DNA of 64,000 nucleotides from Bacteroidota bacterium (GCA_020444275.1 JAHLLG010000002.1:404266-468265); one strand, 5' to 3'. Positions 39,496-64,000 are shown, counted from the first letter of the stretch. Program-made: numbers and translations. Notes: generated by a model from the sequence alone, not told the origin.

Positions 39496-39501
39496 TCTTA
39501 A

Positions 39502-40662: not shown

Positions 40663-40673
40663 ACAAGCTTAAA

Positions 40674-42626: not shown

Positions 42627-42637
42627 ATTTTTAAAAT

Positions 42638-44399: not shown

Positions 44400-44403
44400 T
44401 TAT

Positions 44404-44805: not shown

Positions 44806-44831
44806 AGCAATGTGATTAAGTTAGGTTGGAG

Positions 44832-46615: not shown

Positions 46616-46618
46616 AAC

Positions 46619-47515: not shown

Positions 47516-47548
47516 GTAAAACCCTCCAATTTGGTTTTAACAGGGGAT

Positions 47549-47797
47549 TTAATTCTCTTGTGCTCGTTTTATAATATAGTCATAAAAATCTTGAAGTGAT
47601 TTTATATTTGCAAAATCTTCGCCTTTTACTTTAAAACCAAAATTCTTTTCGATAATCACAACAAGGTCAACATAATCGAGGCTGTCAATTTCCAAGGTTT
47701 CTTTTAAACTAGCTGAGGGAATAAGTTGATCTTCTTCCAGTTCGAATTCATCAATTAAGAAGTCATTCACTTTATTAATTATCTCCTGATTCTCCAT
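47549..47797 (-). CDS. Acyl carrier protein
   Basis: 82 aa, with 'LEIDSLDYVDLVVIIE'. Confidence 0.85.
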   Translation of the reverse strand: MENQEIINKVNDFLIDEFELEEDQLIPSASLKETLEIDSLDYVDLVVIIEKNFGFKVKGEDFANIKSLQDFYDYIIKRAQEN

Positions 47798-47824
47798 ATT
47801 TCCAATAATCTCCCAGTTAAATAC

Positions 47825-49048: not shown

Positions 49049-49074
49049 AGGTCTGTATTACAGTGTTTTACATG

Positions 49075-49803
49075 TTATGTATATAGTCCTCCATTTACAG
49101 ATATTACTTCACCGGTAACGTAAGATGCATTTGGTGAAGCTAAAAATGACACTACATGAGCAACTTCTTCCGCTTTACCGAATCTGCTCATCGGAATTAT
49201 TCGTTTGTAATCTTTCTCCTCCAGTTCCTGTGTCATGTCTGTTTTAATAAATCCCGGGGCAACACAATTTACTGTAACATTTTTCTTGGCAACTTCCTGA
49301 GCTAAAGCTTTACTTGCTGCAATAACTCCTCCCTTAGCAGCAGAATAATTGGTTTGGCCCGGTAAACCTTTAATACCAGATAATGAAACTACATTAACAA
49401 TTCTTCCATATTTGTTAACAATCATATCTTGTACTAAATGTTTTGTAATATAATAAAAACTATCGAGATTTGTATTTAATACATCCTTCCAGTCTTCATC
49501 TTTCATCCACATAATAAGCGCATCTTTTCTAATACCGGCATTATTTACAAGCACCTCGATTACAGCATCCGGATTCTTTTCTTTCCATTGATTAATTGCT
49601 GCTTTTATTCCTTCAGGATCAGAAACATCAAATGGCATTAACTCACCTGAACCTCCGTTTTCTTTTATTTGGTTCAGGGTGTTTTGTGCTTCTTCGATAT
49701 TACTTCTGTAGTTGATTAATACATGGTATCCCAACTTTGATATTTCAAGGCATATAGCCTTGCCAATTCCTCTTGATCCTCCTGTAACTAATGCAAATTT
49801 CAT
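49075..49803 (-). CDS. 3-oxoacyl-ACP reductase (FabG-like SDR)
   Basis: 'VTGGSRGIGKAI', 'NNAGI' and the 'YSAAKGG' catalytic Tyr-x3-Lys. Confidence 0.9.
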   Translation of the reverse strand: MKFALVTGGSRGIGKAICLEISKLGYHVLINYRSNIEEAQNTLNQIKENGGSGELMPFDVSDPEGIKAAINQWKEKNPDAVIEVLVNNAGIRKDALIMWMKDEDWKDVLNTNLDSFYYITKHLVQDMIVNKYGRIVNVVSLSGIKGLPGQTNYSAAKGGVIAASKALAQEVAKKNVTVNCVAPGFIKTDMTQELEEKDYKRIIPMSRFGKAEEVAHVVSFLASPNASYVTGEVISVNGGLYT

Positions 49804-49810
49804 TTTGATA

Positions 49811-51352
49811 TTATTTTAAAATATTTGGCTTATTTTCAACTAAATAGTTGTTAATATTTTCGATATGCTTATATAATGGTTCGTCTTTTGTGATTGTTGG
49901 CACTAATTTTCTTAACTCATGATATACTTCTTTTCCTGTTGCAGATAATCTATCTTTAAATTTCATGTAATCTACTATCTGTAACAGACTTAAAAACTTA
50001 ATGGCTAAAACCTGAAATGAATTCTCGATTACTTTTTTTGTAATTAATGCTGCGTTTGTTCCCATACTTACAATATCCTGGTTATCACCATTATTAGGTA
50101 TACTGTGAACGTACATAGGGTTTGACAACATTTGACTCTCTGCTGTTGTGCTGGTAGCAGTAAATTGAGCAGCTTGTAATCCAAGGTCAAGACCAACAAC
50201 TCCTAAATTTGCAAATGGAGGGAATTTTTCATTAATCTTGTTATTATACAGGTAATTAATTTGTCGTTCAACCAACATGGTAAGCTTAGTAATAACAATT
50301 TTTAACTTATCCATCTCAAGCGAAACATAATCACCATGGAAATTTCCACCATGAAGTACGTCGATGTTTTCATTTTCGATGATCGGATTATCGTTCACTG
50401 AGTTGATTTCATTAATCAAAACTTCTTCCACATGATTAAGTGTTTCGTAAACCGGCCCTAAAACTTGTGGAACACATCGCAGTGAATAATACTCCTGAAC
50501 TTTAACCTTTATAACACCTACACCAATATTATTATCGTAGAATAGATCTGCTCTTTTTTGAATCAAATCACTTGATTCAACAATTTTACGCATTTGCTCT
50601 GCAATAACATTTTGTCCCTTATGAAGTTTTACCTGGTTAAGTTCTTTTGAAAAATGATCATCTACAGACTCAACAACTTCATTGATCATGGTTGATGAAA
50701 TTAATGCCCAGTTTAAAAGATTTTTGGCATGAAGTAGATTAATTAATCCTATACCTGTCATACATGATGTTCCATTGATTAAAGCCAACCCTTCTCTCAA
50801 GTGGATTTGTAATGGTTCAAGGTTATTTGCCTTAAATACTTCTTTTGCAGGACGATACTTTCCATCGTAAAAGATTTCACCTTCTCCAATCAAATTTAGC
50901 GCCAGATGCGCTAATTGCACTAGGTCGCCACTGGCTCCAACTCCACCATGTTCAAAAATCTTTGGATAAATATCTCTGTTAATGAACTCTTTTAGCAAGT
51001 AGATAGCATCAGTATGAACACCGGAATATCCACGCATAAAAGTATTCAACCGTCCAATCATTAATGCTTTTACATAGATGTTTGGCAGAGGATTTCCTGT
51101 ACCCGCAGCATGACTGCGAATAAGGTTGTACTGAAGTAGTTTTTGGTCCTCGTCGCTAATCTTGTATTGAGCCATTGGACCAAAGCATGTATTAATGCCG
51201 TATATTACTTTATCCTTGGAAAAATCTTCTAGAAAATTATAATTCTTTTCAACTTTATGTAATGATTCAGAATCTAAGTCTATTTTTTCTCCTTCATAAA
51301 GTGCTTTGTAAAAATCATTTAGATTGAGATTCTTACCCCCTAATATTATCAT
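49811..51352 (-). CDS. MIO-dependent aromatic amino acid ammonia-lyase (tyrosine ammonia-lyase of the flexirubin type)
   Basis: 'GGVGASGDLVQLAH' (Ala-Ser-Gly MIO triad). Long stretches resemble my recollection of the Flavobacterium johnsoniae TAL ('QYNLIRSH..GTG', 'NGTS.MTGIG', 'QEYYSLRCVPQ.LGP', 'TATSTTAESQMLSNPMYVHSIPNN'). Confidence 0.9.
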   Translation of the reverse strand: MIILGGKNLNLNDFYKALYEGEKIDLDSESLHKVEKNYNFLEDFSKDKVIYGINTCFGPMAQYKISDEDQKLLQYNLIRSHAAGTGNPLPNIYVKALMIGRLNTFMRGYSGVHTDAIYLLKEFINRDIYPKIFEHGGVGASGDLVQLAHLALNLIGEGEIFYDGKYRPAKEVFKANNLEPLQIHLREGLALINGTSCMTGIGLINLLHAKNLLNWALISSTMINEVVESVDDHFSKELNQVKLHKGQNVIAEQMRKIVESSDLIQKRADLFYDNNIGVGVIKVKVQEYYSLRCVPQVLGPVYETLNHVEEVLINEINSVNDNPIIENENIDVLHGGNFHGDYVSLEMDKLKIVITKLTMLVERQINYLYNNKINEKFPPFANLGVVGLDLGLQAAQFTATSTTAESQMLSNPMYVHSIPNNGDNQDIVSMGTNAALITKKVIENSFQVLAIKFLSLLQIVDYMKFKDRLSATGKEVYHELRKLVPTITKDEPLYKHIENINNYLVENKPNILK

Positions 51353-51707
51353 TTCAGTTCTTTGGTTAAGCGTTAAAGTGGTTTAAACCTATAAATTTTT
51401 TATGCTCTTTTTTGTAAAAATGCAAATTTAATAAATACTTTGAATAAACCTTAGTTACTTTTTTGTTTTAATCAACATTTTTATAAATAATCAAAAATCT
51501 ATGATAAATGTAATGTAATGCTCAAAGAACACTTGAGCTGTCATATGAAGGTCCTAAAATCTTAAACAATCAATGTTACGTTTTGTTTACTAAATATTTA
51601 TTTTGGCATAAATTTATTTTGATATAATTTAGTAGGCTTAAATTTTGATTGAATGCTTTGATTATTTGGAACGAAAGCAAAGAGTTATACACTTCAATTT
51701 TGTTATA
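51353..51707. promoter_or_regulatory. Divergent intergenic control region between the APE core operon and the accessory sub-cluster
   Basis: 355-nt AT-rich spacer between divergent gene starts. It contains a GCTCAA-(7 nt)-TTGAGC inverted repeat at 51520-51538, and an HTH gene lies next to it. No promoter was mapped. Confidence 0.3.
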
Positions 51708-52205
51708 ATGAAAGAAAAAGACGCTTATGTCGATTTTGAACCACAGCAACTTATAATGTATGTTGAAAAGGAAGATGGAACCTATGGTCCAATTCAAACT
51801 GGTTCATATATATCAAAAAATTATTTGGATGATTTTTGGGAAAAGACTGTAAGACTTAGAAGCATGTTGCTCGATAAACTTAAAAAGAATGAAATTACAT
51901 CGATATATTTTTATAAATTAATTCACGATTTTAATGATGTTGAACTATCGCGCAGAACAGGAATATCCGTGCGGAGAGTAAAAAAGCATCAGAAAGTGGA
52001 TTGTTTTAAAAGGGCTCGCTTGTCAGATCTCCGGAAATATGCTTATGCGTTTGATATTCCTGTATCTAATTTACTTCAAACGATTGTTGTGGGAGAAGAA
52101 GAGCAAAATCCAGATATAGAAAGTGAAAAGCGTCAAGTAAAAGTAAAGCAATCGAGAACGGAAAATCCATTTTTAGTTATTACCAAAATAGATCTTAATA
52201 CATAA
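51708..52205 (+). CDS. Small HTH-containing protein (XRE-like), paralog of 44404..44805
   Basis: 'DVELSRRTGISVRRVKKHQK...LSDLRKYAYAFDIPVSNLLQ'. I prefer the ATG at 51708 ('MKEKDAYV') by comparison with the paralog; the ORF track starts at 51645. The stop overlaps the next start (TAATG). Confidence 0.55.
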   Translation: MKEKDAYVDFEPQQLIMYVEKEDGTYGPIQTGSYISKNYLDDFWEKTVRLRSMLLDKLKKNEITSIYFYKLIHDFNDVELSRRTGISVRRVKKHQKVDCFKRARLSDLRKYAYAFDIPVSNLLQTIVVGEEEQNPDIESEKRQVKVKQSRTENPFLVITKIDLNT

Positions 52206-53218
52206 TGATAATAGATTCTTTTAAACACAATATGGCGGCTCACTGTGAGTCGGGTACATTAACCGCTTTATTAAAACATAAAGGTTTAGAGATAACCGAA
52301 CCTATGATATTTGGTTTAGGAAGCGGTTTATACTTCGGGTATCTTAGTCATACGCCAAATTTAAGTTTTCCGATGTTTATTTTAAGAACGAAGCCTGGAA
52401 AACTTCGCAAGAAGATTGCAAAAAGAACTGATATAAAATTTAATACTCAGAGGTTTAAAAGCGAAGATAAAGCAGAACAGGAATTAGATGAACTAATAAG
52501 TAAGGGTATTCCTGTAGCTTGTCAGGTGGATTTTTACTACATGGATTATATTCCACAGTGGGAGAGAGTTCATGCTAACATTCACTTTATTACGGTTGTT
52601 GGAAAAGAGGGCGATGAATATCTTGTTAGTGATAGTTATTTTCCAAAATTAGCGCGTATTCACAAAGATAAATTAAGAAAAGCTCGATTTGCAGGAGGCT
52701 ATTTAGCACCAAAAGGTTTTCGATATTTTATTGAATCTGTTCCGGAAACTATTAATTATGAAAAATTAATACCAGTTTCAATAAAAAACACCATTAATAA
52801 TATGATCGGAGTGCAACCTCCTTTTATTGGGGTGCGTGGTATTAGAACTTTTGCAAAAAAATTGCAGGGTTGGCCTAAAATTACACGAGATATTGATCAC
52901 CTTTCACACGAAGTGATGAAAATTAATGTATTTTTGGAAGACCAGGGAACCGGTGGTGGAGGATTTCGATATTTATATGCAACATTCCTTAGACAATGTG
53001 CTGATAAAATATCAAATAAGGAGTTAGAAGAGATGTCGAAAAAGATGATGGAAATCGGCGATGGTTGGCGAAATATTTCTTACTTTGCAGCCAAAATAGG
53101 AAAGAACAGAGATTTAGGAGCTGATAAACTTAAGGAGCTTGGAGATATGATTAACGAAAGAGCTGATGCCGAAGAAGCATTTTATAAGGAGTTGAAAGTA
53201 GTTATAAATAATATTTAA
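52205..53218 (+). CDS. BtrH N-terminal-domain (papain-like fold) protein, DUF4872-type C-terminus
   Basis: 337 aa, with 'AAHCESGTLTALL' and 'HANIHFITVVG'. It is colinear with 43383..44399 along its whole length, including 'GTGG.GFR..YA.FL'. Confidence 0.65.
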   Translation: MIIDSFKHNMAAHCESGTLTALLKHKGLEITEPMIFGLGSGLYFGYLSHTPNLSFPMFILRTKPGKLRKKIAKRTDIKFNTQRFKSEDKAEQELDELISKGIPVACQVDFYYMDYIPQWERVHANIHFITVVGKEGDEYLVSDSYFPKLARIHKDKLRKARFAGGYLAPKGFRYFIESVPETINYEKLIPVSIKNTINNMIGVQPPFIGVRGIRTFAKKLQGWPKITRDIDHLSHEVMKINVFLEDQGTGGGGFRYLYATFLRQCADKISNKELEEMSKKMMEIGDGWRNISYFAAKIGKNRDLGADKLKELGDMINERADAEEAFYKELKVVINNI

Positions 53219-53231
53219 TTTTTCAGATATA

Positions 53232-53507
53232 ATGGGAGAACATAATGGTACAGAGTTGAAGGCGGATATTAAAAAGATGATTATTGAAACATTGAATATG
53301 CAAGATATTACGCCCGAAGATATAGATGATGATTTACCGCTTTTTGGTGGTGATAATACTTTAGGTCTTGATTCTATTGATGCAATTGAGTTGGTAATGT
53401 CTGTTCAGCGCCAGTTCAAAGTACGTATTGATGATCAGAATTTAGCCCGTGAGGTGTTAAAAGATGTAAATTCTATTGCAGAATTTATTCAAAGTAAGGC
53501 TGAGTAA
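53232..53507 (+). CDS. Acyl carrier protein
   Basis: 91 aa, with 'LGLDSIDAIELVMSVQ'. Confidence 0.85.
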   Translation: MGEHNGTELKADIKKMIIETLNMQDITPEDIDDDLPLFGGDNTLGLDSIDAIELVMSVQRQFKVRIDDQNLAREVLKDVNSIAEFIQSKAE

Positions 53508-53545
53508 GTCTTTTTCTTTTATTTAAAATCCGAACCAAACTAATT

Positions 53546-54634
53546 ATGAAAAGTGCTTACCTGATAGCAGGTATGAGACTATCCAGATTCATAAAACTTA
53601 TGATGAAAAATGGAATGTCTGTTCGTCCAAAATTCTTGGTTCGCTTTTTATTTCTTTTCCAGAATGGTATCTGGGCTTCAATTTTTTATCGCAAGGAGAA
53701 ATCAATCTATAAAGATCTTATTAAAAAACACAGATTACCCGATGATCCAATTATTATTGTAGGACATTGGAGAACTGGTAGTACTTTTTTGCACCAACTG
53801 TTAGCTCTTGATCCAAATATTGTAACTTCTAATGTTTTTCAGGGGTCAATACCTGATAGTTTCCTGACTTCCAGAAAGTCGTATGAGCCAATAATGGGCA
53901 GAGCGCTTAAAGGTACTCGCCCAATGGATCAGGTTAAGTTGAGTATGGACGAACCATTGGAAGATGAATATGCCTTATTTCGTTTATGCAGCTATTCACC
54001 ACTCGAAGGAGTTATTTTTCCTAAACAGGACGGATATTTTTTAAATCACTTTCCGGGATTTTTACCTGAAGATGAAAAATTAGAACAATGGAAAAGTGCA
54101 CTTAAATATTTTTATAAAAAATTAACTATAAACAACAACTCAAGAATATTAATTAAAAATCCTTTTCATTCTTTTCGAATTAAAGTTTTAAACGAAATAT
54201 TCCCCAATGCAAAGTATATTCATATCATCAGGCACCCACATAAAGTGGTGCCATCTACTATTCGCATGTGGGATATAGTAGGATCCCAAAATGCAATGAA
54301 TACCAAATGGAGAAAGCCTACAGCTGGCGAGGTAAGTGATGTTTTTAATAAAATGATTCTGCAAATAGAAAAAGATTTTAAAGGTCTTTCTGCAGAAAGG
54401 TATTATGAGTTGAAGTTTGAAGATTTGGAGAAAAATCCAATAAACGAGATAAAGGCAATCTATAAGCATTTAAATGTTCAATTTTCTGATGAATTTGAGC
54501 AACAAATATTACAATTTTTAAATTCGGTAAAAGGGTACAAAAAAAATAAATATACAATTCCGGAATCGGATAAACTGGAAATCAATAACATCCTGAAATC
54601 ATGGATGCAAGCGAAAGATTATAGTTTGGATTAG
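53546..54634 (+). CDS. PAPS-dependent sulfotransferase family protein
   Basis: 5'-PSB loop 'VGHWRTGSTFLHQLL' and a 3'-PB-like 'IIRHPHKVVPST'. 362 aa. Confidence 0.8.
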   Translation: MKSAYLIAGMRLSRFIKLMMKNGMSVRPKFLVRFLFLFQNGIWASIFYRKEKSIYKDLIKKHRLPDDPIIIVGHWRTGSTFLHQLLALDPNIVTSNVFQGSIPDSFLTSRKSYEPIMGRALKGTRPMDQVKLSMDEPLEDEYALFRLCSYSPLEGVIFPKQDGYFLNHFPGFLPEDEKLEQWKSALKYFYKKLTINNNSRILIKNPFHSFRIKVLNEIFPNAKYIHIIRHPHKVVPSTIRMWDIVGSQNAMNTKWRKPTAGEVSDVFNKMILQIEKDFKGLSAERYYELKFEDLEKNPINEIKAIYKHLNVQFSDEFEQQILQFLNSVKGYKKNKYTIPESDKLEINNILKSWMQAKDYSLD

Positions 54635-54686
54635 TTTATTTTTTTGATACTTTTAACCATTAAATTAAGAAGAAAACAAAGAACGT

Positions 54687-55961
54687 ATGAAATTTCAATT
54701 AATATTTCCCAAGTGGAGAAAGCTGGAAGGACAAACAACATTTAATTTACCACCACATGGTGCGATTGTATTTGCATCAACCATTCCTGAAGAGTTTGAA
54801 GTTGAATTTATAGATGAAAATCTTGAGGAAATGAGATTCGATGATGATGTTGATTTTGTGGGAATATCCATGTTGTTAACAACACAAATAAAACGAGGTT
54901 GGGCAATAGCCGACGAGTATAGAAAAAGAGGCAAGAAAGTTATATTTGGTGGTATTGCAACCATGCTGCATGCCGAAGAAACGATGGAACATGCCGATAG
55001 TGTTTTCCTTGGAGAAGCTGAAGGACACATGGATCAGGTTTTCAAAGATTTCAAGAATGGAGAATTGAAGAAATTTTATAATTTCATGAATGATCTTCCG
55101 CCGATTGAAATTGTTGGTCCTGCACGAAGAGAGCTTTACAACAGAGATTTGTATTATCATAAAGGAGTTCAAATGGTTGACTTATTCCATGCTTCGCGTG
55201 GTTGTCGCTATAGTTGTTATCCTTGTGCAGTTTCTTATTTAGGTGGTCGTCAGTTTCGACCAAGACCCATTGATAAATCCATTGAAGAGCTGGAGACAAT
55301 AGATAATAACAGACTATTTATTGTAGATAATTCGCTGGCACAAGATACTCAATGGGAAAAGGATCTGTTTAAGGCAATGATTCCACTTAAGAAAAAATGG
55401 TGTAGTCATACAATTGAAGATAAGCCAGAGGTTCTTGATTTGGCAGCGCAAGCTGGTGCATGGTATGTTTACCAGGCTGTTTTTGATACTTCGGACTATA
55501 TTAAAAATCGTGTAAAACGATATCATGATTACGGAATTGGAGTAGAAGGTACTATTTTATTAGGTCTAGATAACCAAACAGAGGATGATATTAAGCGATT
55601 AATTGATTTCTTACTGGAGATTGATCTTGACCTGGCCGAATTTACAGTATTGGCACCATTCCCACATACTAAAGCCTGGACCGATTTAAGAAAACAAAAC
55701 AGAATTTTCGATTACAACTGGGATAACTACAATGCTGGTCAGGTGGTTTATCACCCAAAACACATGAGTGCTGAGCGTTTACAAGAGTTGTATCAGTATG
55801 CATGGGATACATTCTATAAAGATGAAACGCAGGAAGAAAAGATGTTTAAACTCTTGAAAAAGGTTGTTTCAAGAGAAATGGAAGATGGAACTTTCAGAAA
55901 GCGCCGACAGGATCTTTCAAAATCCAGCTTTGGAAAAAATGTTAAACATAAAATTGCATAA
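54687..55961 (+). CDS. B12-binding-domain radical SAM protein
   Basis: N-terminal B12-binding-like region. CX3CX2C motif 'GCRYSCYPCAV'. 424 aa. Confidence 0.85.
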   Translation: MKFQLIFPKWRKLEGQTTFNLPPHGAIVFASTIPEEFEVEFIDENLEEMRFDDDVDFVGISMLLTTQIKRGWAIADEYRKRGKKVIFGGIATMLHAEETMEHADSVFLGEAEGHMDQVFKDFKNGELKKFYNFMNDLPPIEIVGPARRELYNRDLYYHKGVQMVDLFHASRGCRYSCYPCAVSYLGGRQFRPRPIDKSIEELETIDNNRLFIVDNSLAQDTQWEKDLFKAMIPLKKKWCSHTIEDKPEVLDLAAQAGAWYVYQAVFDTSDYIKNRVKRYHDYGIGVEGTILLGLDNQTEDDIKRLIDFLLEIDLDLAEFTVLAPFPHTKAWTDLRKQNRIFDYNWDNYNAGQVVYHPKHMSAERLQELYQYAWDTFYKDETQEEKMFKLLKKVVSREMEDGTFRKRRQDLSKSSFGKNVKHKIA

Positions 55962-55975
55962 TTGTTGATTGTACG

Positions 55976-56353
55976 ATGGAAACAAAAACAAGTAAATATC
56001 AGGATCAATTGTATCATTTTAAGGGATTATGGGATCTTCCATCAGTTTGTGGGTTGAAAATTGTAAAAAAAGCTGATCAAGCAATTATCATTGCTACTGA
56101 TTTGTTTGATGAAAACCCCGGAACTTCTATTACGGAATGGAATACAAAGTTAGCGAAAGAGCTGTGCGATAATCATGATATAAATTACCAGGATTTAATT
56201 TATATTGAGCATACCCCAAATAAGGATACCAAGTTATCGTTTAACAGAGAAACATTTTATAAAGTTAATTTTGATATTAGCGACAATGGATTTGATAATC
56301 CACAGTGGGAGGAGTTAACAAAAAGTGAAGTAGATAAATTATTAACAGAATAA
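55976..56353 (+). CDS. Hypothetical protein
   Basis: 125-aa ORF, tightly packed in the operon. No motif recognised. Confidence 0.5.
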   Translation: METKTSKYQDQLYHFKGLWDLPSVCGLKIVKKADQAIIIATDLFDENPGTSITEWNTKLAKELCDNHDINYQDLIYIEHTPNKDTKLSFNRETFYKVNFDISDNGFDNPQWEELTKSEVDKLLTE

Positions 56354-56363
56354 ACAAAATATA

Positions 56364-56666
56364 ATGGCTAAAATTACTGATAACACAAGAAATGAGGTTA
56401 AAGAAATCGTTCTGGATTTTTTTGCAGAGGAGTGTGAGGTTGATGCAGAAGAGATATCAGAAGATGCAAATATTATTAGTGATCTGGATGGTGATTCTTT
56501 AATGTTTCTTGAGCTTATTGAAATATTTAAAAAGAAATATAATTTAAATATAGAATTAAAAACAATTGGTAAATATGCGGTTAAGCATCCGGTAAAAACT
56601 ATTGGAGAGCTTATCGATATGCAAATGCTTATCATTGAGCACGAAAATAATATTTTGGATTTGTAA
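56364..56666 (+). CDS. Acyl carrier protein (divergent)
   Basis: 100 aa, with 'SDLDGDSLMFLELIEIF' as an ACP-like DSL motif. Confidence 0.75.
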   Translation: MAKITDNTRNEVKEIVLDFFAEECEVDAEEISEDANIISDLDGDSLMFLELIEIFKKKYNLNIELKTIGKYAVKHPVKTIGELIDMQMLIIEHENNILDL

Positions 56667-56681
56667 GATACTATTCAGTGG

Positions 56682-57050
56682 ATGATATTAAGTTGTGGTA
56701 TTGATATTGAAGAGATAGAACGATTTAATAAGCACTACTTTCACAAAGGAAAGTTGTCTGATTTAATGTACGATATTTTTACTACTAAGGAGATAGATAA
56801 TTTGTCTGTTTTCGGTAAAGAAGCCTTTTTAAAAGGCTTTTGTTTTAAGGAGGCATTCTATAAGGCCATAAATAATACAAATGTAGGTTTCTTGGATATT
56901 CAGATTATTTTTAGCAGTGAAAAAAGTTTTGAAATTTTAAAGTCGAAAGAACTTGATAATATCTTAAATAGTTTGGCCATAAAAGAGATTCAGGTAGAAT
57001 TTCAAACAGAGAAACAATACATCATTTCAAAGGTTTTATTAGTACACTAA
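56682..57050 (+). CDS. AcpS-type 4'-phosphopantetheinyl transferase
   Basis: 'CGIDIEEIERF', 'FTTKE' and 'CFKEAFYKAI'. Both AcpS Mg-ligand positions (Asp, Glu) are conserved. Confidence 0.75.
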   Translation: MILSCGIDIEEIERFNKHYFHKGKLSDLMYDIFTTKEIDNLSVFGKEAFLKGFCFKEAFYKAINNTNVGFLDIQIIFSSEKSFEILKSKELDNILNSLAIKEIQVEFQTEKQYIISKVLLVH

Positions 57051-57940
57051 TGAAAAAGAAAGCATATATTTTCCCTGCATTTATTACTGAATTTACAGGT
57101 AAAGAAATATCTTTTCTTGAAGATCATAACATTGATATCAATACGTATCTGTCCAATATTTCCGAATCTTTAGCTATTGAATTACCAACTTTTTCTTATG
57201 AGCACGAATTTTATAAAGAAGAGCTAAATTCTCAATTAATTGCTTACTCGTTTAGCTGTGCTTTTTCCGATATTTTAAAATCTAAACAGATTATTCCTGA
57301 TTATATCGCCGGATACAGTATGGGAATTTATGCTTCACTTTATGCTTCTGGCAGCATCGATTTTATTCAGGGAGCTCAAATAATATTTAAAGCATATAAT
57401 CTGGTTAAAGCTCTTTCTGACGAAGGATTACACGGTATGGGAGCAGTTGTTGGGTTAACGTATTCAGAATTAAATGAGTTAATCTTAAAACATAATTATG
57501 CTCTGGAGATAATAAACACCAACAACGAGCACTCGTTAGTTCTAGCCGGAAAGAAGAACGATCTTAAAGAACTTTTAACCATAGCTAAAGATTTAGGTGC
57601 ATTATCTGCAGGAGATTTAACCGTAAATACACCATATCATTCCAGATTTTTAAAGCAGTTTGCTGCTCCATTCAGGTGCTTTTTAGATCAGTTGAATATT
57701 TCTGATAGTAAACTGCCTCTAATATCCACGTATGATCAAAAGCTTGTGTTCAAAGTTTCGGATGTAAAGTTGGAGTTAGTAATTAACTTAACGGAATCTA
57801 TTAACTGGGGAAGAACCATGCTTAAATTAATTGATCTTGGAGTGGAAGAGATGTACGAATGTGGAGCAGGTAAGGATTTAAAAAAGATATCGCGTTTTAT
57901 TCATGGTAATTACAAAATCAAATCGGTATATAATATATAA
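57050..57940 (+). CDS. FabD-like acyl-CoA:ACP transacylase, non-canonical specificity residues
   Basis: It aligns to E. coli FabD: 'AGYSMGIYASL' (Ser nucleophile kept, GHSLG becomes GYSMG), 'TPYHSRFL' (His kept) and 'YECGAGK'. 'GQGSQ' is replaced by 'AFITEF', and the Arg of 'EMRGKFM' is replaced in 'IFKAYNLV'. Confidence 0.75.
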   Translation: MKKKAYIFPAFITEFTGKEISFLEDHNIDINTYLSNISESLAIELPTFSYEHEFYKEELNSQLIAYSFSCAFSDILKSKQIIPDYIAGYSMGIYASLYASGSIDFIQGAQIIFKAYNLVKALSDEGLHGMGAVVGLTYSELNELILKHNYALEIINTNNEHSLVLAGKKNDLKELLTIAKDLGALSAGDLTVNTPYHSRFLKQFAAPFRCFLDQLNISDSKLPLISTYDQKLVFKVSDVKLELVINLTESINWGRTMLKLIDLGVEEMYECGAGKDLKKISRFIHGNYKIKSVYNI

Positions 57941-57944
57941 AAAA

Positions 57945-57965
57945 GGAACCTAATTTTGAGGTTCC
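57945..57965. terminator. Bidirectional rho-independent terminator
   Basis: GGAACC-(9 nt)-GGTTCC hairpin, flanked by AAAA upstream and TTTTTTGTTT downstream, between convergent genes. Confidence 0.7.
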
Positions 57966-57989
57966 TTTTTTGTTTAAAATAGTTAATTC

Positions 57990-58604
57990 CTATTTAAAAG
58001 CTTTTTTTACTAAATAAGCACCGAATTCTTTTCCACCTTTTGCATAGGCTTCTGAAATTCTGTAACCAGTATCATAATCATTACCCATAGCGTCGCGTCC
58101 GGGAACTTTTTCCATGGTCATTACGGCTAAAACATTATCACGGTTTTCTGTTTCAGCAAATACAATTTCAAGGTCAATCATTGCATCTTTTCTCATAACG
58201 CCAACATTAAATCCTGGTTCTGTAAACGTAACTTTTACAACCGCAACATATTTTGCATTAATATTGGTTTGATCAATATTGCAATTGGCTTTTGCTAAGT
58301 ATTTATTAGCAAGTTCTTCGAATTTAGGATGGAAACGTCCTTCTCTGTCTGCAACCCAGCTTTCTGCCCATTCATCACCTTTGCCAGGCTCTTTTTCGTT
58401 GTACTCAGCTACTTTTTTGGCTACATAGTCTTCTTCTCTCTCAAATTTGCCAACAGCCATATTACTGTAATCATATTCCACCAATAATTCCGTTTGGCCT
58501 TTCAGGAAATCTAAGTCGCCACGTACAACTTTGATTTTTTGTGCTTGAACATTTGTTGCAACAACTACAATTAGTGCAACTAAAACAGTTTTTAAAATTT
58601 TCAT
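57990..58604 (-). CDS. Hypothetical secreted protein
   Basis: 204 aa with signal peptide 'MKILKTVLVALIVVVATNVQAQ'. No recognisable motif. Confidence 0.55.
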   Translation of the reverse strand: MKILKTVLVALIVVVATNVQAQKIKVVRGDLDFLKGQTELLVEYDYSNMAVGKFEREEDYVAKKVAEYNEKEPGKGDEWAESWVADREGRFHPKFEELANKYLAKANCNIDQTNINAKYVAVVKVTFTEPGFNVGVMRKDAMIDLEIVFAETENRDNVLAVMTMEKVPGRDAMGNDYDTGYRISEAYAKGGKEFGAYLVKKAFK

Positions 58605-58641
58605 ACGAAGTAATTTTTTGTTTGTAATTAAATATTTAAAA

Positions 58642-58818
58642 TTATATAAAAATTGCTAGGGTGCCATGAACCATCGCTGTTATGAATAAAGTAATGCCCA
58701 AACGTCGGTGTAAAGTAAATTTTACTTTAATGATGCGTAGTCCACTTAAAAGTTGAAATAATGCCAGAATAAAATTGATTATTCCTAACCATAAGATGAT
58801 ATTAATTCCAAAAATCAT
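58642..58818 (-). CDS. Small (58-aa) two-TM membrane protein, not in the supplied ORF track
   Basis: My manual translation is MIFGINIILWLGIINFILALFQLLSGLRIIKVKFTLHRRLGITLFITAMVHGTLAIFI*. It has two hydrophobic helices, each followed by or containing a His. It starts 11 nt after the stop of the upstream SOR-like gene. Confidence 0.45.
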   Translation of the reverse strand: MIFGINIILWLGIINFILALFQLLSGLRIIKVKFTLHRRLGITLFITAMVHGTLAIFI

Positions 58819-58829
58819 ATGTTTATGTT

Positions 58830-59207
58830 TTATTTTATTTCAATTTTGACCGAATCAAGGCCTTTAGAACCATGCAGGTTACAATTCCCTTTTGCTTCTA
58901 TGGTTGTTGGGGCGTCAATTTTTAAGGTAAACTCAAGTGTGAAGTTTTCTTCCTCAGGTTTGCTAAAACCACCATATTCCCACTTTTTATATTCTTTGTC
59001 ATTTACTTTTACCCAAACCCAGTTGGTATGATGCAAAAAGTTATTACCACTATGAGTTACTTCAATTTTAATAGTTACTTCAGATCCTTTTTCAACTTTT
59101 TCTGGGGCATCTATTTTTACTGAAGTTTCATTTGCTAGCGAATGAAGAGAGAAAATTAGAATCAATAATAATGAGATTGTACTTGCTTGTAATAATTTCT
59201 TTTTCAT
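58830..59207 (-). CDS. Exported desulfoferrodoxin/neelaredoxin (superoxide reductase)-like domain protein
   Basis: 125 aa with a signal peptide. 'EVTHSGNNFLHHTNWVWVKV' and 'GNCNLHGSKG' parallel the SOR 'H-x6-HH(I/Y)..I' and 'CN.HG' Fe-ligand motifs. 'PEKVEKG' sits where SOR has 'EKHVP'. Confidence 0.6.
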   Translation of the reverse strand: MKKKLLQASTISLLLILIFSLHSLANETSVKIDAPEKVEKGSEVTIKIEVTHSGNNFLHHTNWVWVKVNDKEYKKWEYGGFSKPEEENFTLEFTLKIDAPTTIEAKGNCNLHGSKGLDSVKIEIK

Positions 59208-59243
59208 AATATTTTAGTTTGAATTTGAATTATTGGTCAAGTA

Positions 59244-59621
59244 TTATTCTACACTAACAGTAAATTTATCTTCTCCTTTAGATCCATGTTTGTTGCAATT
59301 ACCTTCTGCAACTATTTCGAGGTTAGCATTGGCAATTATTTTATATTCTAAAGTGAAGTTTTGGTCGTCAGGCAGGTTGTCTTTTGAATATTCCCATCGC
59401 TTAACTTCTTCGCCGTTAACTTTCAACGAAACCCAGTCGGTGTAGTGTCCTTTTGTATTTCCAATATGTTTAACTTCAATTTTAACAGTTACTTCTGTCC
59501 CTTTTTTTACTTTTTCCGGAGCAACAATTGTTACAGATGTTTTATTGGCAAAAACTCCTGAAGAGATTAGCAGAAGAGCCATTAATGCAAAAATACCTAA
59601 TAAAGTGTTTTTTCTTTTCAT
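59244..59621 (-). CDS. Exported desulfoferrodoxin/neelaredoxin-like domain protein (tandem paralog)
   Basis: 125 aa with a signal peptide. Motifs 'EVKHIGNTKGHYTDWVSLKV', 'GNCNKHGSKG' and 'PEKVKKG'. Confidence 0.6.
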   Translation of the reverse strand: MKRKNTLLGIFALMALLLISSGVFANKTSVTIVAPEKVKKGTEVTVKIEVKHIGNTKGHYTDWVSLKVNGEEVKRWEYSKDNLPDDQNFTLEYKIIANANLEIVAEGNCNKHGSKGEDKFTVSVE

Positions 59622-59652
59622 AGTATGATTCCCCTTTTTAGTGATAAGCTAA

Positions 59653-59721
59653 TTTACTAAAAAAAGAATATAAATGGTTATTTTTTATGAAATTGGGATT
59701 AATTTTTACTAAAAAAAGAAT
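59653..59721. repeat. 17-nt exact direct repeat pair in an intergenic region
   Basis: TTTACTAAAAAAAGAAT occurs at 59653-59669 and again at 59705-59721, between the rSAM gene and the first SOR-like gene. Confidence 0.7.
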
Positions 59722-59740
59722 CATACAAATACTTTAAGTA

Positions 59741-61081
59741 TTAAATTACATCTGTACCTTTCTTTATTAACCATAGCTTACCAACATTTTCATAAAATTT
59801 TTCCAGAGGTAACTTGGTTTTAAGAACACTATTGAAAAAGTTATATTTTGTGAGATCAAAATCAATAATTTGCTCTTTTACTTCATCATAGAAAGGTGTA
59901 CCAGGCATTGGTGTTAAAATGGTATATCCGGCATACGTTACTTTGTGAGAGCTGGTATATTCAGATAAGGCTTTAAAGTCAGATTCATCGTAATCATTAG
60001 GTATTACATAATTACCTCTTAGCATGATGTCATTTTTATGAAAAATATCAATAGCTTCATGTATTAACCTAGCTTCGGCACTTTTGTTATATCTTTTCAA
60101 CTCTTCTTCTCTAAACGATTCAAAACCACAGATCACTACTTTTAAACCATTCCTTGCTAGTTTTTCAATTAATTTTGGATGTTTAACAGCCGTATCTGTT
60201 CTAATGTCCATGATATAGGTTTTCTTAATACCTTCCTGTTCTATTCTATCAAACAGATAATCAATAACCTTTTCGTTAACAATGGTATTGGCATCGGCAA
60301 AACGAACAATGTTATAGTCAATCTGCTTTAACTCGGTGATTATACTTTCCACATCACGCTGCAAATATTTTCCATGATACTGGCACCAAATAGAGCAAAA
60401 AGTACATTTGTATGGACAACCCAATGAAGTAAACAAATAAGTTGATGGTTCATTTGCATTTCCTACAATATAGCTGTCCCGCCAGGGCTCAACTAATTTT
60501 CGGTTCGGCATCAAAAAATCTTCTTTGGCCGAGTTAAAATCATATCTCCTTAGTTTCGTTTTTTTTAGCTCACCATTATGATTGATGATGATTCCCGGAA
60601 TATGATCAAATGTCTTATTTTTTTCTTTAGCTTGTATAACTTCTCTGAAAATGTGCGCTGATTGTCCTGGAAGAACAAGGTCTACCGATGGATCTGAAAA
60701 ATCGGTGGGAGATGAGGTAGCATGTAGTCCGCCGGCTACAGTTAAAATTTGAGGATTGAACGATTTTACAGTTTTAAAAATTTCTATGGCGTAATCAAAT
60801 TCTGAAGCAATGGTAGTTGTTCCAACAACATCGGGTTGATGTTCATTTAATAATTTAAGTACTAACTCTTGTAATGGTGGAGTAGTTTCCGGGTACAAAT
60901 CATACTGACCTTTAGTTTCAAAAAAAACTACATCATAATCTTTAACTGCTTCGGCAACGGTTAATAGTCCTAATGGCGGACCAATTAATTTTTTATGAAT
61001 ATATTTTTTGGCTTCTGCAGGTGCAGATTCAAGAATCATATTATGAGGTGAACGCGGTGTATTAATTAATAGAATTTTCAT
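59741..61081 (-). CDS. B12-binding-domain radical SAM protein
   Basis: N-terminal B12-binding-like region ('MKILLINTP...'). CX3CX2C motif 'GCPYKCTFCSIW'. 446 aa. Confidence 0.85.
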   Translation of the reverse strand: MKILLINTPRSPHNMILESAPAEAKKYIHKKLIGPPLGLLTVAEAVKDYDVVFFETKGQYDLYPETTPPLQELVLKLLNEHQPDVVGTTTIASEFDYAIEIFKTVKSFNPQILTVAGGLHATSSPTDFSDPSVDLVLPGQSAHIFREVIQAKEKNKTFDHIPGIIINHNGELKKTKLRRYDFNSAKEDFLMPNRKLVEPWRDSYIVGNANEPSTYLFTSLGCPYKCTFCSIWCQYHGKYLQRDVESIITELKQIDYNIVRFADANTIVNEKVIDYLFDRIEQEGIKKTYIMDIRTDTAVKHPKLIEKLARNGLKVVICGFESFREEELKRYNKSAEARLIHEAIDIFHKNDIMLRGNYVIPNDYDESDFKALSEYTSSHKVTYAGYTILTPMPGTPFYDEVKEQIIDFDLTKYNFFNSVLKTKLPLEKFYENVGKLWLIKKGTDVI

Positions 61082-61159
61082 GCTAACCGAAGTAAAACGT
61101 AAGCTGCGAATATACTAAAAAGATTATTAAAGATTAGAATTACGACTTTTCAGTTGTCT

Positions 61160-63514
61160 TTAAAATTGTATTCTGTAGCTTGCCATAGGATACAATGCCA
61201 TTTCGTAATTATGATAAATTTTACCTGTTAATGGATCAATTCTTTGTTCGTAAACACTGGTATAGTTTGTTCGATACTGGAGATCCATAGCAATTTCAAC
61301 GTTGAATTTTGGCTTATTTCTACGTATCCCCAATCGTAAGTTAACTCTAAAATAATCTTCTTGTCTGTGTTCATACGCATGGTCCCAATCTAAAACTTCT
61401 TCGCGTTGAGCAATAGTTGCTTCCACATCGTATGGTACATAAGGGCGCCCACCTGCATATGTGGTCTTCAGACCTATAATAAAAGCGTTGGTTTTGCGCA
61501 GTGGTATTTCATAACCACCAAGCACATTAATAGCAAAATTACCATTAAATGCTGTATTCCTTTCCTTACCATCATATCCTCTATAAGTTGATTCGTAGAG
61601 TGATGTTGTAAGTAAGAAGTAGAAATTATCTTCAAAAAATCGCTCTAATGTGAGCTCGATACCATAGTTTTCACCAGTTCCATCATTGGTTAAGCTATCC
61701 ACTCGTTCGATAAAATATTCTGCGCCAAAATTAAGTACCGAATATTCCGGTTGACTGGGTTTTACAGGAATATCGTAAAGGTACTGATAGTACGTTTCGA
61801 ACTTTAATCTGAGATTATCGCTAAACAGATGATCATATCCAATAACAAACTGGTGACTCTTTGTTAAATCAAGATTTTTATTGGTATATACATAAGATCC
61901 ATCGTCCAATTTTGTTTGTGTAAAATAGATTACGCGCAGTTGCGCCTGACTGTGCAATCCATAACCCATTTTAAATGAGTTTCTGGAATTTATAGTCCAG
62001 TTAAAACCTAAGCGTGGTTCGATGGAATAAGTGTCGTTTAAATCTAAATACTGAAAGTTAATTCCGGAATAGAGATCAATGTAATTTGTAAATTTGTGTT
62101 TAAACTGCGCATATGCCTGAAACATATCAAACTGTTCATTTCTTACGTCAGTATCAACTTGAAAAACGCCATTGTTAATGGTGCTATCTTCAAAACTTAC
62201 AAAATAACGATCTACCTTTATACCGTAATTCAGAATGTTTTTATTATTAAGCTTGGTATTTATATGTGATGTCAGACTAGCTTTTACTTCAGATGATTTT
62301 TCACCTGCCCAGTTACCAATTAGCTCAGGATCGAGATAGAATGTGTCAATTTGTGTTGTAACAGCTGATCCATAAAGTGATACTGCGGTTTGCATACGTG
62401 TTTTTGTTCCAAAGAAATGAACATATGACAGAGCCAATGAACCTATGTCAGAACCATTACTGAGATCTTCTCCCCAGTCATCAAATGACCATTCACTTTG
62501 ATCATCATTAGAATCAAACATTTCAATATAGCTTTTCCCGCCCAAACCAACCAGGCTTAATCTTCCTTTTTTCATTGGAAAATTAAGTTTAACGGTTAAG
62601 TCCTGGTATTTTGTAGTTTCCACTTCGGCACCCAAAAGATCAATAATGTCAACCATCGAATATCGATAGGAAATTAAATATGATGCATTGGAATTTTTAG
62701 AGAAAGGTCCTTCGGTTCCAAATTCTAAACCATTATAACCAAATTCCAACCAGTGTTCTCTTTTTTCGTTATTTCCGGTGCGCATTTTCATATCAAAAAC
62801 ACCTGCTAAAGCATTACCATATTCAGCAGGAAATGCTCCGGTAAAGAAATCTGAATTGCTTAACAAATTATTATTCAAAATAGTTATTGGTCCTCCTGTG
62901 GTCCCCGATGCAGCAAAATGATTCGGATTCGGAATTTCAATACCATCTAATCGCCATAGTAATCCTGTGGATGAATTACCACGAATAATAATATCATTTC
63001 TGTTATCGCGTACCGACATAACTCCTGCATAGTTTGCAGCCATGCGTGCCGGATCATCATAACTTCCGGGGTATCTGCTCGTTTCTTCAACGGTAAATGA
63101 CCGGGCACTTACAGTTGCCATTTTATTGATAGGTTTGTCTTTTTGAACGGTAGCTTTTATAACAACTTCATCGAGCTCGGTAACTGATTCTTCTAATTCT
63201 ATTTTAAGGATTTTTTCTTTAGCTGAGCTAATGGTAATATTGTCAAGAGCTTGTGTTTTGTAACCTACGTAGCTGGCTTGAATAGTTTGCCTGCCCACAG
63301 GAACATTATCAAAACGAAAGGTTCCATTCTCATCACTTATGGTACCTTGTTGCGGACTTGTATTTGGCAAAATGATATTCACCCCGGAAAGTGGTATCTG
63401 AGTTTCTCTGTCTACTACAACACCTCGTAATGTTTGTGTAAGTATTTTTTGTGCAAAACCAGATAAAACAGGTATGCTAACTAAACAGATAAGCAACAAA
63501 AGTTTTTGCTTCAT
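61160..63514 (-). CDS. TonB-dependent receptor with N-terminal carboxypeptidase-regulatory-like domain
   Basis: 784 aa. Signal peptide, then 'LRGVVVDRETQIPLSGVNIILPN...GTFRFDNVPVG' (CarboxypepD_reg). The plug region has 'IIIRGNSSTGLLWRLDGIEI'. The beta-barrel ends in 'SYRIQF'. Confidence 0.9.
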   Translation of the reverse strand: MKQKLLLLICLVSIPVLSGFAQKILTQTLRGVVVDRETQIPLSGVNIILPNTSPQQGTISDENGTFRFDNVPVGRQTIQASYVGYKTQALDNITISSAKEKILKIELEESVTELDEVVIKATVQKDKPINKMATVSARSFTVEETSRYPGSYDDPARMAANYAGVMSVRDNRNDIIIRGNSSTGLLWRLDGIEIPNPNHFAASGTTGGPITILNNNLLSNSDFFTGAFPAEYGNALAGVFDMKMRTGNNEKREHWLEFGYNGLEFGTEGPFSKNSNASYLISYRYSMVDIIDLLGAEVETTKYQDLTVKLNFPMKKGRLSLVGLGGKSYIEMFDSNDDQSEWSFDDWGEDLSNGSDIGSLALSYVHFFGTKTRMQTAVSLYGSAVTTQIDTFYLDPELIGNWAGEKSSEVKASLTSHINTKLNNKNILNYGIKVDRYFVSFEDSTINNGVFQVDTDVRNEQFDMFQAYAQFKHKFTNYIDLYSGINFQYLDLNDTYSIEPRLGFNWTINSRNSFKMGYGLHSQAQLRVIYFTQTKLDDGSYVYTNKNLDLTKSHQFVIGYDHLFSDNLRLKFETYYQYLYDIPVKPSQPEYSVLNFGAEYFIERVDSLTNDGTGENYGIELTLERFFEDNFYFLLTTSLYESTYRGYDGKERNTAFNGNFAINVLGGYEIPLRKTNAFIIGLKTTYAGGRPYVPYDVEATIAQREEVLDWDHAYEHRQEDYFRVNLRLGIRRNKPKFNVEIAMDLQYRTNYTSVYEQRIDPLTGKIYHNYEMALYPMASYRIQF

Positions 63515-63560: not shown

Positions 63561-64000
63561 TTATTGATTTGTTTTGATAGAAAATCCTGCCTGTTCCAGA
63601 ATATTTCCCAGCTGAACATATTTTCCATGCGAATAGGCCATGAGTTCGTTGTGTTGCATATTAATCGTATTATTCGTATCGATATAATCTTCAGCAACCT
63701 GGATATTAACCACTTCAGCCAAAAACATATCATGTGATCCCAACTCTTTTATTTCTGTTACTTTACATTCAATATTGATAGGCGATTCTTTAATAACAGG
63801 CGCGCTAACTTCTTTTCCTTTTTCCGGGGTTAAATTCATCTCTTTGAATTTATTATAGTCACGTCCTGATCTGCGTCCGCAAAAATCGGCTGCTCTAACC
63901 AAATCTTTGGTAGAATAATTAATAACAAACTCTTTGTTTCGTTCGATAATTGCATGTGAGTGCCTGTCTTTCCGAATAGAAACATAACACATTGGTGGTA
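63561..64000 (-). CDS. Flavin reductase-like (FMN-binding split-barrel) protein, 5' end beyond window
   Basis: The reading frame stays open to the window edge ('..PPMCYVSIRKDRHSH..'). 'FVINYSTKDL' and 'SPINIECKV' fit the flavin reductase domain pattern. Confidence 0.65.
   Translation of the reverse strand, partial: PPMCYVSIRKDRHSHAIIERNKEFVINYSTKDLVRAADFCGRRSGRDYNKFKEMNLTPEKGKEVSAPVIKESPINIECKVTEIKELGSHDMFLAEVVNIQVAEDYIDTNNTINMQHNELMAYSHGKYVQLGNILEQAGFSIKTNQ

Follow-up and report, generated by a model that had tools for sequence, protein, structure and literature searches.

One-iron superoxide reductases (SORs; neelaredoxin, class II), such as that of Ignicoccus hospitalis (PDB 4bk8/4brj), are cytoplasmic proteins with rubredoxin as a partner. 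Exported SOR-type proteins have also been predicted, in that SORGOdb described seven uncharacterised 'TAT-SOR' proteins in 2011 (PMC3116461) and a 'periplasmic SOR' has been proposed in Sulfurimonas pluma (PMC10066037); both have been put forward as scavengers of periplasmic superoxide, and neither paper names a membrane partner (PMC3116461, PMC10066037). Another example of a periplasmic system, in this case one that is supplied through the membrane, has been described in E. coli, where electrons flow from the cytosolic Fre to the membrane protein MsrQ and on to the periplasmic MsrP (PMC12525009, PMC5676040). Here, we describe a locus in a 64,000-nt stretch of DNA from a Bacteroidota bacterium (GCA_020444275.1 JAHLLG010000002.1:404266-468265; hereafter the window, on which all positions are counted), where genes for two exported SOR-like proteins, copy A and copy B, lie beside a gene for a 58-residue two-helix membrane protein, referred to below as the tiny protein. 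The SOR-like and tiny genes form a separate two-gene module, which is the conserved core of the locus, and in the literature searched no publication was found in which a SOR-like protein is paired with a small cytochrome.

The module was followed in a one-genome-per-species scan, in which SOR-like relatives were found in 107 genomes and the gene context was examined at 80 loci, comprising 29 from Bacteroidales/Bacteroidota, 34 of Desulfobacterota type, nine from Leptospirales/Spirochaetota and eight others. At 67 of 85 loci the SOR-like gene is immediately followed by a tiny gene on its own strand (about 14 with downstream DNA are without it and four are cut), and outside the Bacteroidales the neighbours of the pair are unrelated housekeeping genes. 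Two tiny-family proteins that were picked independently are each encoded just after a gene cut by a contig end, and the one such gene that was translated gave the C-terminus of a SOR-like protein. In addition, the two partners occur as natural one-chain fusions in P0188 (216 aa) and P0203 (295 aa), which run from a signal through a SOR-like domain and a linker to a tiny domain at the C-terminus, the latter being matched by the hidden Markov model of the tiny family with E-values of 3e-20 and 1e-21, respectively. There is high confidence that the SOR-like and tiny genes work together. The original prediction, which was made from the window sequence, had taken six genes as one unit, and this did not hold, as only the SOR-like and tiny genes travel together across phyla and are also found fused; the object of interest is therefore narrower than first proposed, with two genes and not six, yet far more widespread, reaching into several phyla.

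The SOR-like proteins share both the fold and the Pfam family (Desulfoferrodox, PF01880) of the one-iron SORs, and their carriers are likewise anaerobes. Copy A and copy B, which are 48% identical to each other, match this family with 34.8 and 35.2 bits, respectively, against a gathering score of 22.2. The closest PDB sequence match of copy A is the SOR of I. hospitalis, and copy A is 100% identical to an NCBI protein from a metagenome-assembled genome (MAG) that is named 'class II SORL domain-containing protein'. Its AlphaFold2 model (predicted local distance difference test score, pLDDT, of 88) has 4brj as the top PDB fold match, with an E-value of 6e-7 and a template modelling (TM) score of 0.66. 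Homologues of these genes are annotated as ordinary desulfoferrodoxin-family proteins; a profile search of 1.84 billion representatives (E up to 0.001) returned only 248 relatives, which indicates that the branch is small and distinct.

In both copies the chain begins with a Sec-type signal (MKKKLLQAS... and MKRKNTLLG...), with a hydrophobic core and an A-x-A-like site, and the two proteins are therefore predicted to be exported, as TAT-SOR and the S. pluma SOR are, as opposed to the cytoplasmic location of the one-iron SOR. A twin-arginine (RR) motif was looked for in the SOR-like proteins of the window and none was found, which sets them apart from TAT-SOR, the two being compared by signal type and description. 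Twin-arginine signals are present in a minority of the SOR-like relatives (L031, L032, L076, P0175 and P0192), so that the TAT-SOR and SOR-like classes probably overlap. The original prediction of two exported SOR-like proteins agrees with the Desulfoferrodox matches and the predicted signals, while its further remark that export of desulfoferrodoxin-fold proteins is unusual stands only in part: the proteins appear to be exported, but exported SOR types had already been predicted as TAT-SOR (PMC3116461), and export alone is therefore not new.

The difference from the one-iron SOR is greatest at the metal site. Residue conservation was measured across 87 family members, in all of which H52, N55, H59, F89, C109, N110, H112 and G113 are invariant. 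Among these, H52, H59, C109 and H112 occupy the positions of three of the four His ligands of SOR and of its Cys ligand, and they are kept even in distant exported relatives. The C-N-x-H-G and H-x6-H motifs of the SOR-like proteins align with the SOR ligands, although the His pair of the one-iron SOR is spaced H-x5-H. The full Fe(His)4(Cys) ligand set is not present, the SOR-like proteins having three His and the Cys only, and where the one-iron SOR has its first His ligand, in the E-K-H-x-P loop, they have Thr or Ser. The Lys of this loop is found in 71 of the 87 sequences, copy B of the window included. An Ala stands at position -1 of the predicted signal-peptidase site in 86 of the 87 sequences, and the first residue of the predicted mature chain is Asn or Asp, exactly at the position of the Glu of SOR; this junction between Ala and Asn/Asp at the predicted cleavage site is also kept in 67-71 of 77 wider exported relatives. 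We infer from this arrangement that the N-terminus may participate in the metal site, and, as judged from sequence, the SOR-like proteins are an exported, ligand-variant branch of the SOR fold.

While the SOR-like proteins can be placed next to a known family, the tiny protein belongs to no family, and its homologues are without a name in every source. Across 68 sequences from several phyla, G12, N15, Q22, G26, H37, G41 and H51 are invariant, so that helix 1 has an invariant G-x13-G pair and helix 2 an invariant H-x13-H pair, with polar invariant residues (N15 and Q22) in helix 1. H37 and H51 are present in the window protein, in keeping with the earlier description of a small His-bearing membrane protein of 58 aa. 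The H-x13-H bis-His spacing is also that of cytochrome b, and the paired G-x13-G is the cytochrome b glycine pattern. The bundles of cytochrome b/b6, NOX and FRE have, like the tiny protein, His residues 14 apart on one helix and Gly residues 14 apart on the neighbouring helix, with one haem near each membrane face, and a similar placement is proposed for the tiny protein; in those bundles the four helices are part of one chain with six to eight helices, whereas each 58-residue hairpin would supply half of a bundle.

The same spacing leads to the ferric reductase domain, whose helices also have bis-His haem ligands spaced H-x13-H (PMC5676040, PMC12525009). The sole family match of the window tiny protein is Pfam Ferric_reduct (PF01794), with 16 bits against a gathering score of 28, and this is the commonest family among the tiny members (34 of 42, best E 5e-4). 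The domain is defined by six transmembrane helices, of which helices 3 and 5 carry bis-His motifs (PMC5676040); the tiny protein, with two helices and one H-x13-H pair, departs from this. When the tiny protein is placed by hand in register with E. coli MsrQ, H37-R-R-L-G41...H51 falls on R77-R78-L-L-G81...H91, where H91 is the haem ligand on the periplasmic side and R77/R78 lie on the cytosolic side (PMC12525009). The topology is set by the fusions P0188 and P0203, in which the tiny domain starts outside, turns at the cytoplasmic face with its Lys/Arg loop and H37, and has H51 on the periplasmic side, which is consistent with a positive-inside loop. The haem reading follows from motif, spacing and topology, and not from significant homology; with moderate confidence the tiny protein is predicted to bind haem, and for this it would dimerise.

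These invariant residues also bear on whether the pair is a redox system at all. It could be that the SOR-like protein has diverged from SOR and become an immunoglobulin-like envelope protein, with the tiny protein as a mere anchor or assembly partner. Such a role would be in line with the distant exported relatives P0266, P0279, P0280 and P0284, which are N-terminal domains of long surface-type proteins with anchors, with a weak NCBIfam match of the SOR-like protein to a putative S-layer protein, and with the fit of SoxYZ and CARDB domains, which come close to SOR in their match to the fold. We consider it very unlikely, as H52, H59, C109 and H112 are invariant exactly at the SOR ligand positions, distant relatives included, and a mere anchor would not need the invariant H-x13-H and G-x13-G pairs.

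The reading that we favour, and to which we give about an even chance, is that the pair is a two-gene, periplasm-facing redox module in which a homodimeric two-haem conduit feeds the exported SOR-like centre, the rest of the operon being a Bacteroidales-specific assembly around the pair at the edge of a flexirubin-type cluster. In this module the 58-aa protein would be a helical hairpin with both termini outside and the Lys/Arg loop inside, and two copies would form a four-helix bundle, in which the four invariant His residues (H37 and H51 of each copy) would bind two b-type haems. As H37 would be close to the cytoplasmic face and H51 to the periplasmic one, one haem would lie near each face of the inner membrane, and the invariant G12 and G26 on the other helix would leave space for the haems. 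Electrons would enter from the cytoplasmic side, with the adjacent flavin reductase as a possible donor in Bacteroidales and a general flavin reductase or quinol elsewhere, and would pass the membrane via both haems to the exported SOR-like protein. The mononuclear metal centre of this protein, formed by three His and one Cys, would thereby become reduced, the mature N-terminal Asn/Asp lying at the position of the fourth His and the Glu of SOR. Once reduced, this centre would in turn reduce a small oxidant of the periplasm, for which superoxide is the most likely candidate.

What was observed is the pairing of the genes, their fusions, the conserved residues, the fold and the export signals, while haem binding, dimerisation, the nature of the metal, the source of the electrons and the substrate are what we infer. 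For superoxide our confidence is low to moderate: it would be the simplest substrate in view of the fold, the retained ligands and Lys, and the strictly anaerobic carriers, for which reduction would, by analogy, be preferred over dismutation. Aerobes have a periplasmic Cu,Zn-superoxide dismutase. Two suggestions that had been made separately in the original prediction come together in this scheme. The idea that the 58-aa protein, perhaps along with the flavin reductase, relays electrons outward has become the favoured reading, with the flavin reductase linked in Bacteroidales only; the idea of periplasmic detoxification of superoxide or another oxidant combines with it naturally, superoxide being suggested by fold and ligands.

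The closest working analogue is the Fre-MsrQ-MsrP system, in which, as in the proposed module, a cytosolic flavin reductase acts together with a haem-containing membrane protein related to ferric-reductase domains and with an enzyme of the periplasm that repairs or removes oxidative damage (PMC12525009, PMC5676040); by this analogy, the flavin reductase linked in Bacteroidales would fit the role of Fre. The genes for the membrane and periplasmic components are adjacent in MsrPQ, as are the SOR-like and tiny genes, and an [H/R]-R-x-L-G-x9-H pattern can be aligned by register. As opposed to the two helices of the tiny protein, for which dimerisation is needed, MsrQ has six helices, one haem and flavin mononucleotide, and MsrP is a molybdoenzyme that is not related to SOR. 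The partner of the SOR-like proteins would likewise be a membrane protein, where the one-iron SOR has rubredoxin. The statement of the original prediction that its gene set matches no described system holds.

Several observations weigh against the proposed redox module. At the metal site, the first His of SOR has no counterpart (Thr or Ser in 83 of the 87 sequences), copy A has Glu at the position of the catalytic Lys of SOR, and export through Sec implies that the metal must be loaded in the periplasm. SoxY and SoxZ fit the SOR-like model about as well as SOR, and the NCBIfam model of the SOR ferrous iron-binding domain (TIGR00332) gives 26 and 20.9 bits against a cut-off of 61.9, so far below it that the SOR-like proteins are not classed as SORs. 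For the tiny protein, the Ferric_reduct match is under the gathering score in every member, an hhalign comparison of the tiny alignment with E. coli MsrQ gave no signal (probability 0.5%), and a profile search of the PDB sequences with the same alignment returned chance matches only. Every carrier found is a MAG, and no flavin reductase is linked to the module outside the Bacteroidales. There are also about 14 genome loci and five metagenome loci in which a SOR-like gene has downstream DNA and no tiny gene, among them several Bacteroidales with the copy B subtype and members with Tat signals, which means that the pairing is not obligate. Another fixed partner was considered for these loci and rejected, as their downstream genes share nothing.

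If the proposal were right in all its parts, no smaller transmembrane electron wire than the tiny protein would be known in nature, its homodimer re-creating the two-haem four-helix core of cytochrome b and of ferric-reductase domains. The SOR-like centre would be of a new exported kind, with three His, one Cys and its own N-terminus as ligands, and the two would form an undescribed periplasmic system for the reduction of superoxide or another oxidant in anaerobes of several phyla, an outcome that we hold to be possible but somewhat improbable. The altered metal site and the minimal conduit would be new, SOR-type chemistry and MsrPQ-type wiring being already known. Exported SOR-type proteins have so far been a database curiosity with no known electron supply, which a dedicated membrane conduit, encoded beside them and sometimes fused to them, would provide, and this idea is directly testable. 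For transmembrane electron transfer, a two-haem protein that forms dimers from 58-residue chains would offer a very small natural model, and it would bear on the origin of the six-helix ferric-reductase domains and of cytochrome b, while the altered metal site is of interest to SOR chemistry and the module as a whole bears on how anaerobes guard their periplasm.

In the Bacteroidales the module is part of a longer gene order. The order flavin reductase, receptor-like gene, (repeat protein), gene for a radical S-adenosylmethionine enzyme (radical SAM; rSAM2), SOR-like gene, tiny gene and gene for a secreted 204-aa protein (P204) is kept in about 25-30 Bacteroidales loci, followed by convergent pigment genes, and the synteny of the full set is well beyond chance. 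The synteny check that had been suggested at the outset thus found the set of SOR-like, rSAM and receptor genes to recur. In the window (Table 1), six co-directional open reading frames (ORFs) on the minus strand were found at the predicted positions, with intergenic gaps of 11-119 bp. They lie, as predicted, between a terminator and a flavin reductase gene, the ORF of which is still open at base 64000, so that the gene is cut by the window end. The hairpin is the only terminator-like one outside coding DNA, just past the P204 gene, and is located between the stops of that gene (57990) and of a convergent acyltransferase gene (57940).

Table 1. Features of the module and of the genes around it in the window.
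Feature	Position	Strand	Remarks
Hairpin terminator	57939..57971		13-pair stem and T-run, reported on the minus strand; common to both convergent operons
P204, secreted protein, 204 aa	57990..58604	-	N-terminal signal-like helix
Tiny, two-helix membrane protein, 58 aa	58642..58818	-	proposed half of a two-haem cytochrome b bundle
Exported SOR-like copy A, 125 aa, motif NNFLHH	58830..59207	-	Pfam Desulfoferrodox; adjoins the tiny gene
Exported SOR-like copy B, 125 aa, motif GNTKGHY	59244..59621	-	Pfam Desulfoferrodox
rSAM2, B12-binding radical SAM enzyme, 446 aa	59741..61081	-	Pfam B12-binding and Radical_SAM
TonB-dependent-receptor-like outer-membrane protein, 784 aa	61160..63514	-	CarboxypepD_reg domains; Plug just sub-threshold
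Flavin-reductase-domain gene, cut at window end	63561..64000	-	Pfam Flavin_Reduct E 2e-24, from profile position 38

The genes around the pair can be separated from it and from one another. SOR-like, tiny and P204 genes are all missing from L101 and L104, where the receptor-like gene and rSAM2 stand beside pigment genes. L082 has neither receptor nor rSAM; there, an ammonia-lyase gene adjoins the genes for flavin reductase, SOR-like protein, tiny protein and P204, and the flavin-reductase gene is about 0.8 kb upstream of the SOR-like gene. The flavin-reductase orthologue, which has 189 aa in L001, is otherwise found directly upstream of the receptor-like gene in Bacteroidales loci; the linkage of a flavin reductase to the module is thus seen in two arrangements. 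In L049 the SOR-like gene is directly preceded by a receptor-like gene.

The presence of these genes raises the alternative that the pair serves metal handling, in which case the SOR-like protein would be a periplasmic metal binder or metalloreductase (for Fe, Cu or another metal), and the tiny protein would either reduce the bound metal, in the manner of FRE/STEAP, or form a His/Asn/Gln-lined inward channel, like the membrane partners in MerP-MerT and CopC-CopD; in the Bacteroidales the pair would act in concert with the TonB-receptor-like importer and with the flavin reductase. The receptor-like and flavin-reductase-domain genes share the operon of the module in Bacteroidales, and the receptor directly before the SOR-like gene in L049 is of the same kind of evidence. 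The site with three His, a Cys and a conserved N-terminal residue is reminiscent of periplasmic copper sites in which the N-terminal amine is a ligand, the tiny protein has its weak Pfam similarity to the ferric-reductase family, the invariant N15 and Q22 of its helix 1 are polar, and in CopC-CopD, too, a periplasmic binder occurs naturally fused to its membrane partner. Outside the Bacteroidales, however, the module has no receptor, transporter or metal-homeostasis neighbours, and the receptor-like gene remains with the pigment cluster where the module is missing. Moreover, the His residues of the tiny protein are 14 positions apart on one helix and about 20 Å apart in depth, which suits two haems and not one metal, and no riboswitch came up when the window and four loci were scanned with Rfam, metal regulators not having been part of the search. 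On this evidence metal handling appears unlikely.

A second alternative arises from the flexirubin-type pigment cluster at 38860-57940 of the window, in what is apparently an anaerobic Bacteroidales MAG. This cluster encodes a FlxA equivalog (tyrosine ammonia-lyase type; 819.5 against 700 bits) and a TIGR04072 rSAM (422.7 against 360 bits), together with ketosynthase, ketoreductase, acyl carrier proteins, a phosphopantetheinyl transferase, acyltransferases (among them a LpxL-like one), a sulfotransferase, two BtrH_N/DUF4872 proteins, an ABC-2 exporter, a weak DarG-like protein and a third B12-rSAM. It shares the FlxA-type ammonia-lyase, TIGR04072 rSAM, ketosynthase, ketoreductase, acyl carrier proteins and LpxL-like acyltransferase with flexirubin/aryl-polyene clusters and is set apart from these by the sulfotransferase and by three B12-rSAM genes, which are found in and around the cluster with rSAM2 counted. 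No published link was found between SOR-like proteins and flexirubin clusters. To our knowledge, described flexirubin/aryl-polyene clusters have no SOR-like, tiny-cytochrome or TonB-receptor-like genes.

It could thus be that the module carries out a redox step on the pigment, either by modifying a flexirubin/aryl-polyene-type pigment in the periplasm or by re-reducing oxidised pigment of the envelope, with the receptor-like protein, rSAM2 and P204 as further components of the pathway or of export. In the Bacteroidales the module is always at the edge of a flexirubin-type cluster, and at least four gene orders place it beside polyene-type genes, namely that of the window and those of L044/L068/L089, L049 and L082; in some Desulfobacterota (L004, L005, L080 and L039) it is also beside B12-rSAM, acyl carrier protein, ApeP-like, ketoreductase and LolA genes. 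On the other hand, about 45 of the 80 genome loci have no polyketide or pigment genes within 10 kb, most loci outside the Bacteroidales are without polyene-type genes, the closely related pigment clusters in L101 and L104 are without the module, and the flexirubin/aryl-polyene pathways that have been described include, as far as we know, no such step. We therefore regard a pigment step as distinctly unlikely and keep to the redox module described above.

The remaining products of the Bacteroidales gene order can be described as follows. The B12-rSAM enzyme named in the original prediction is supported by matches of rSAM2 to PF02310 (45.3 bits) and PF04055 (53.2 bits) and by a CPYKCTFC cluster motif (CxxxCxxC) in the translation; with a B12-binding domain followed by a radical SAM domain, it is of the class B (cobalamin-dependent) type. 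It falls in no named equivalog, its matches to HpnR (147.7 against 650 bits) and BchE (126.7 against 481) reaching no further than the superfamily, and it scores 21.6 against 360 for TIGR04072. The TonB-dependent receptor of the original prediction is only partly backed, and the protein is better called receptor-like, since its Plug match falls narrowly short of the threshold (23.5 against 23.9 bits) and neither Pfam nor NCBIfam gave a match to a 22-strand barrel family. CarboxypepD_reg domains are present (CarbopepD_reg_2, 73.3 bits), as an N-terminal extension of the kind seen in Bacteroidota receptors. Plug was matched weakly by 13 of 13 receptor-like orthologues (best E 2.2e-5), and the translation has a TonB-box-like string, DEVVIKA, and a C-terminal Phe. 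A phmmer search of the PDB with the receptor-like protein gave nothing, and a 13-sequence receptor profile found there only the N-terminal domains of a SusC homologue and of a TonB-dependent receptor. A role of this receptor as a cobalamin importer for the three B12-rSAM enzymes, under a B12 riboswitch, was also considered and rejected, as Rfam found no RNA family in the window and four loci.

P204, which follows the SOR-like and tiny genes in Bacteroidales loci, has no match in Pfam, NCBIfam or the PDB sequences, where phmmer gave nothing. Its family has more than 620 clusters across Bacteroidota, a few members being named DUF4410 by UniRef, and is also present in aerobic Cytophagales (Fulvivirga, Cesiribacter) in unrelated contexts, without the other five genes. 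The AlphaFold2 model (pLDDT 89.6) has faint fold matches to PelC, DUF330 and LptE-like periplasmic or outer-membrane accessory proteins, with TM scores of about 0.35. A conserved pair of receptor and P204 was dropped as a candidate, as the Fulvivirga receptor, encoded beside a P204 homologue, aligns with the window receptor in the N-terminal domain only and is not an orthologue; the 196-aa protein that neighbours the Fulvivirga P204 homologue is not a P204 paralogue.

A number of further observations concern the SOR-like and tiny families. The copy A subtype adjoins the tiny gene, while in some Bacteroidales loci the gene of the copy B subtype has no tiny gene next to it, and a tandem pair of SOR-like genes (58830-59621) was seen only in the window among about 100 loci examined. 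Six proteins (P0266, P0279, P0280, P0284, P0278 and P0291) have distant exported SOR-like domains with an N-terminus in which the predicted cleavage falls between A and NVP, and with an H-C-[TI]-V-H-G motif; in each, the domain starts a long chain that continues with Pro/Thr linkers and repeats of a Cys-rich unit (CRMSLCDCQCYP...) and ends in a membrane anchor, and the proteins resemble cell-surface proteins. Two chimeras, P0209 (a tiny-like N-terminus with a SOR-like C-terminal half) and P0205 (a histidine-kinase fragment with a SOR-like C-terminal half), are likely to be assembly or frameshift artefacts. In Leptospirales/Spirochaetota (L034, L040, L059 and the P0040 contig), the pair is followed by a convergent glutamate-1-semialdehyde aminomutase-like gene (Aminotran_3), and on one of these contigs a porphobilinogen synthase (ALAD) gene comes after it; both are haem-synthesis genes.

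Other observations concern the Bacteroidales loci. A 367-aa secreted repeat protein with recurring WG[YF]I[ND] is encoded between the receptor-like gene and rSAM2 in L013 (1676-2779) and 10 other loci; its gene is not in the window, where the gap between receptor and rSAM2 is 78 bp. The contig JBKHIH010000006.1 (L001/L006), labelled 'Thiohalospira sp.', has the full Bacteroidales-type order and a SOR-like protein 70% identical to that of the window, and it is probably mis-binned. Within the pigment cluster, the plus-strand gene at 55976-56353 of the window encodes a 125-aa protein without a family match, which lies between an rSAM gene and an acyl carrier protein gene and is conserved in about 21 loci.

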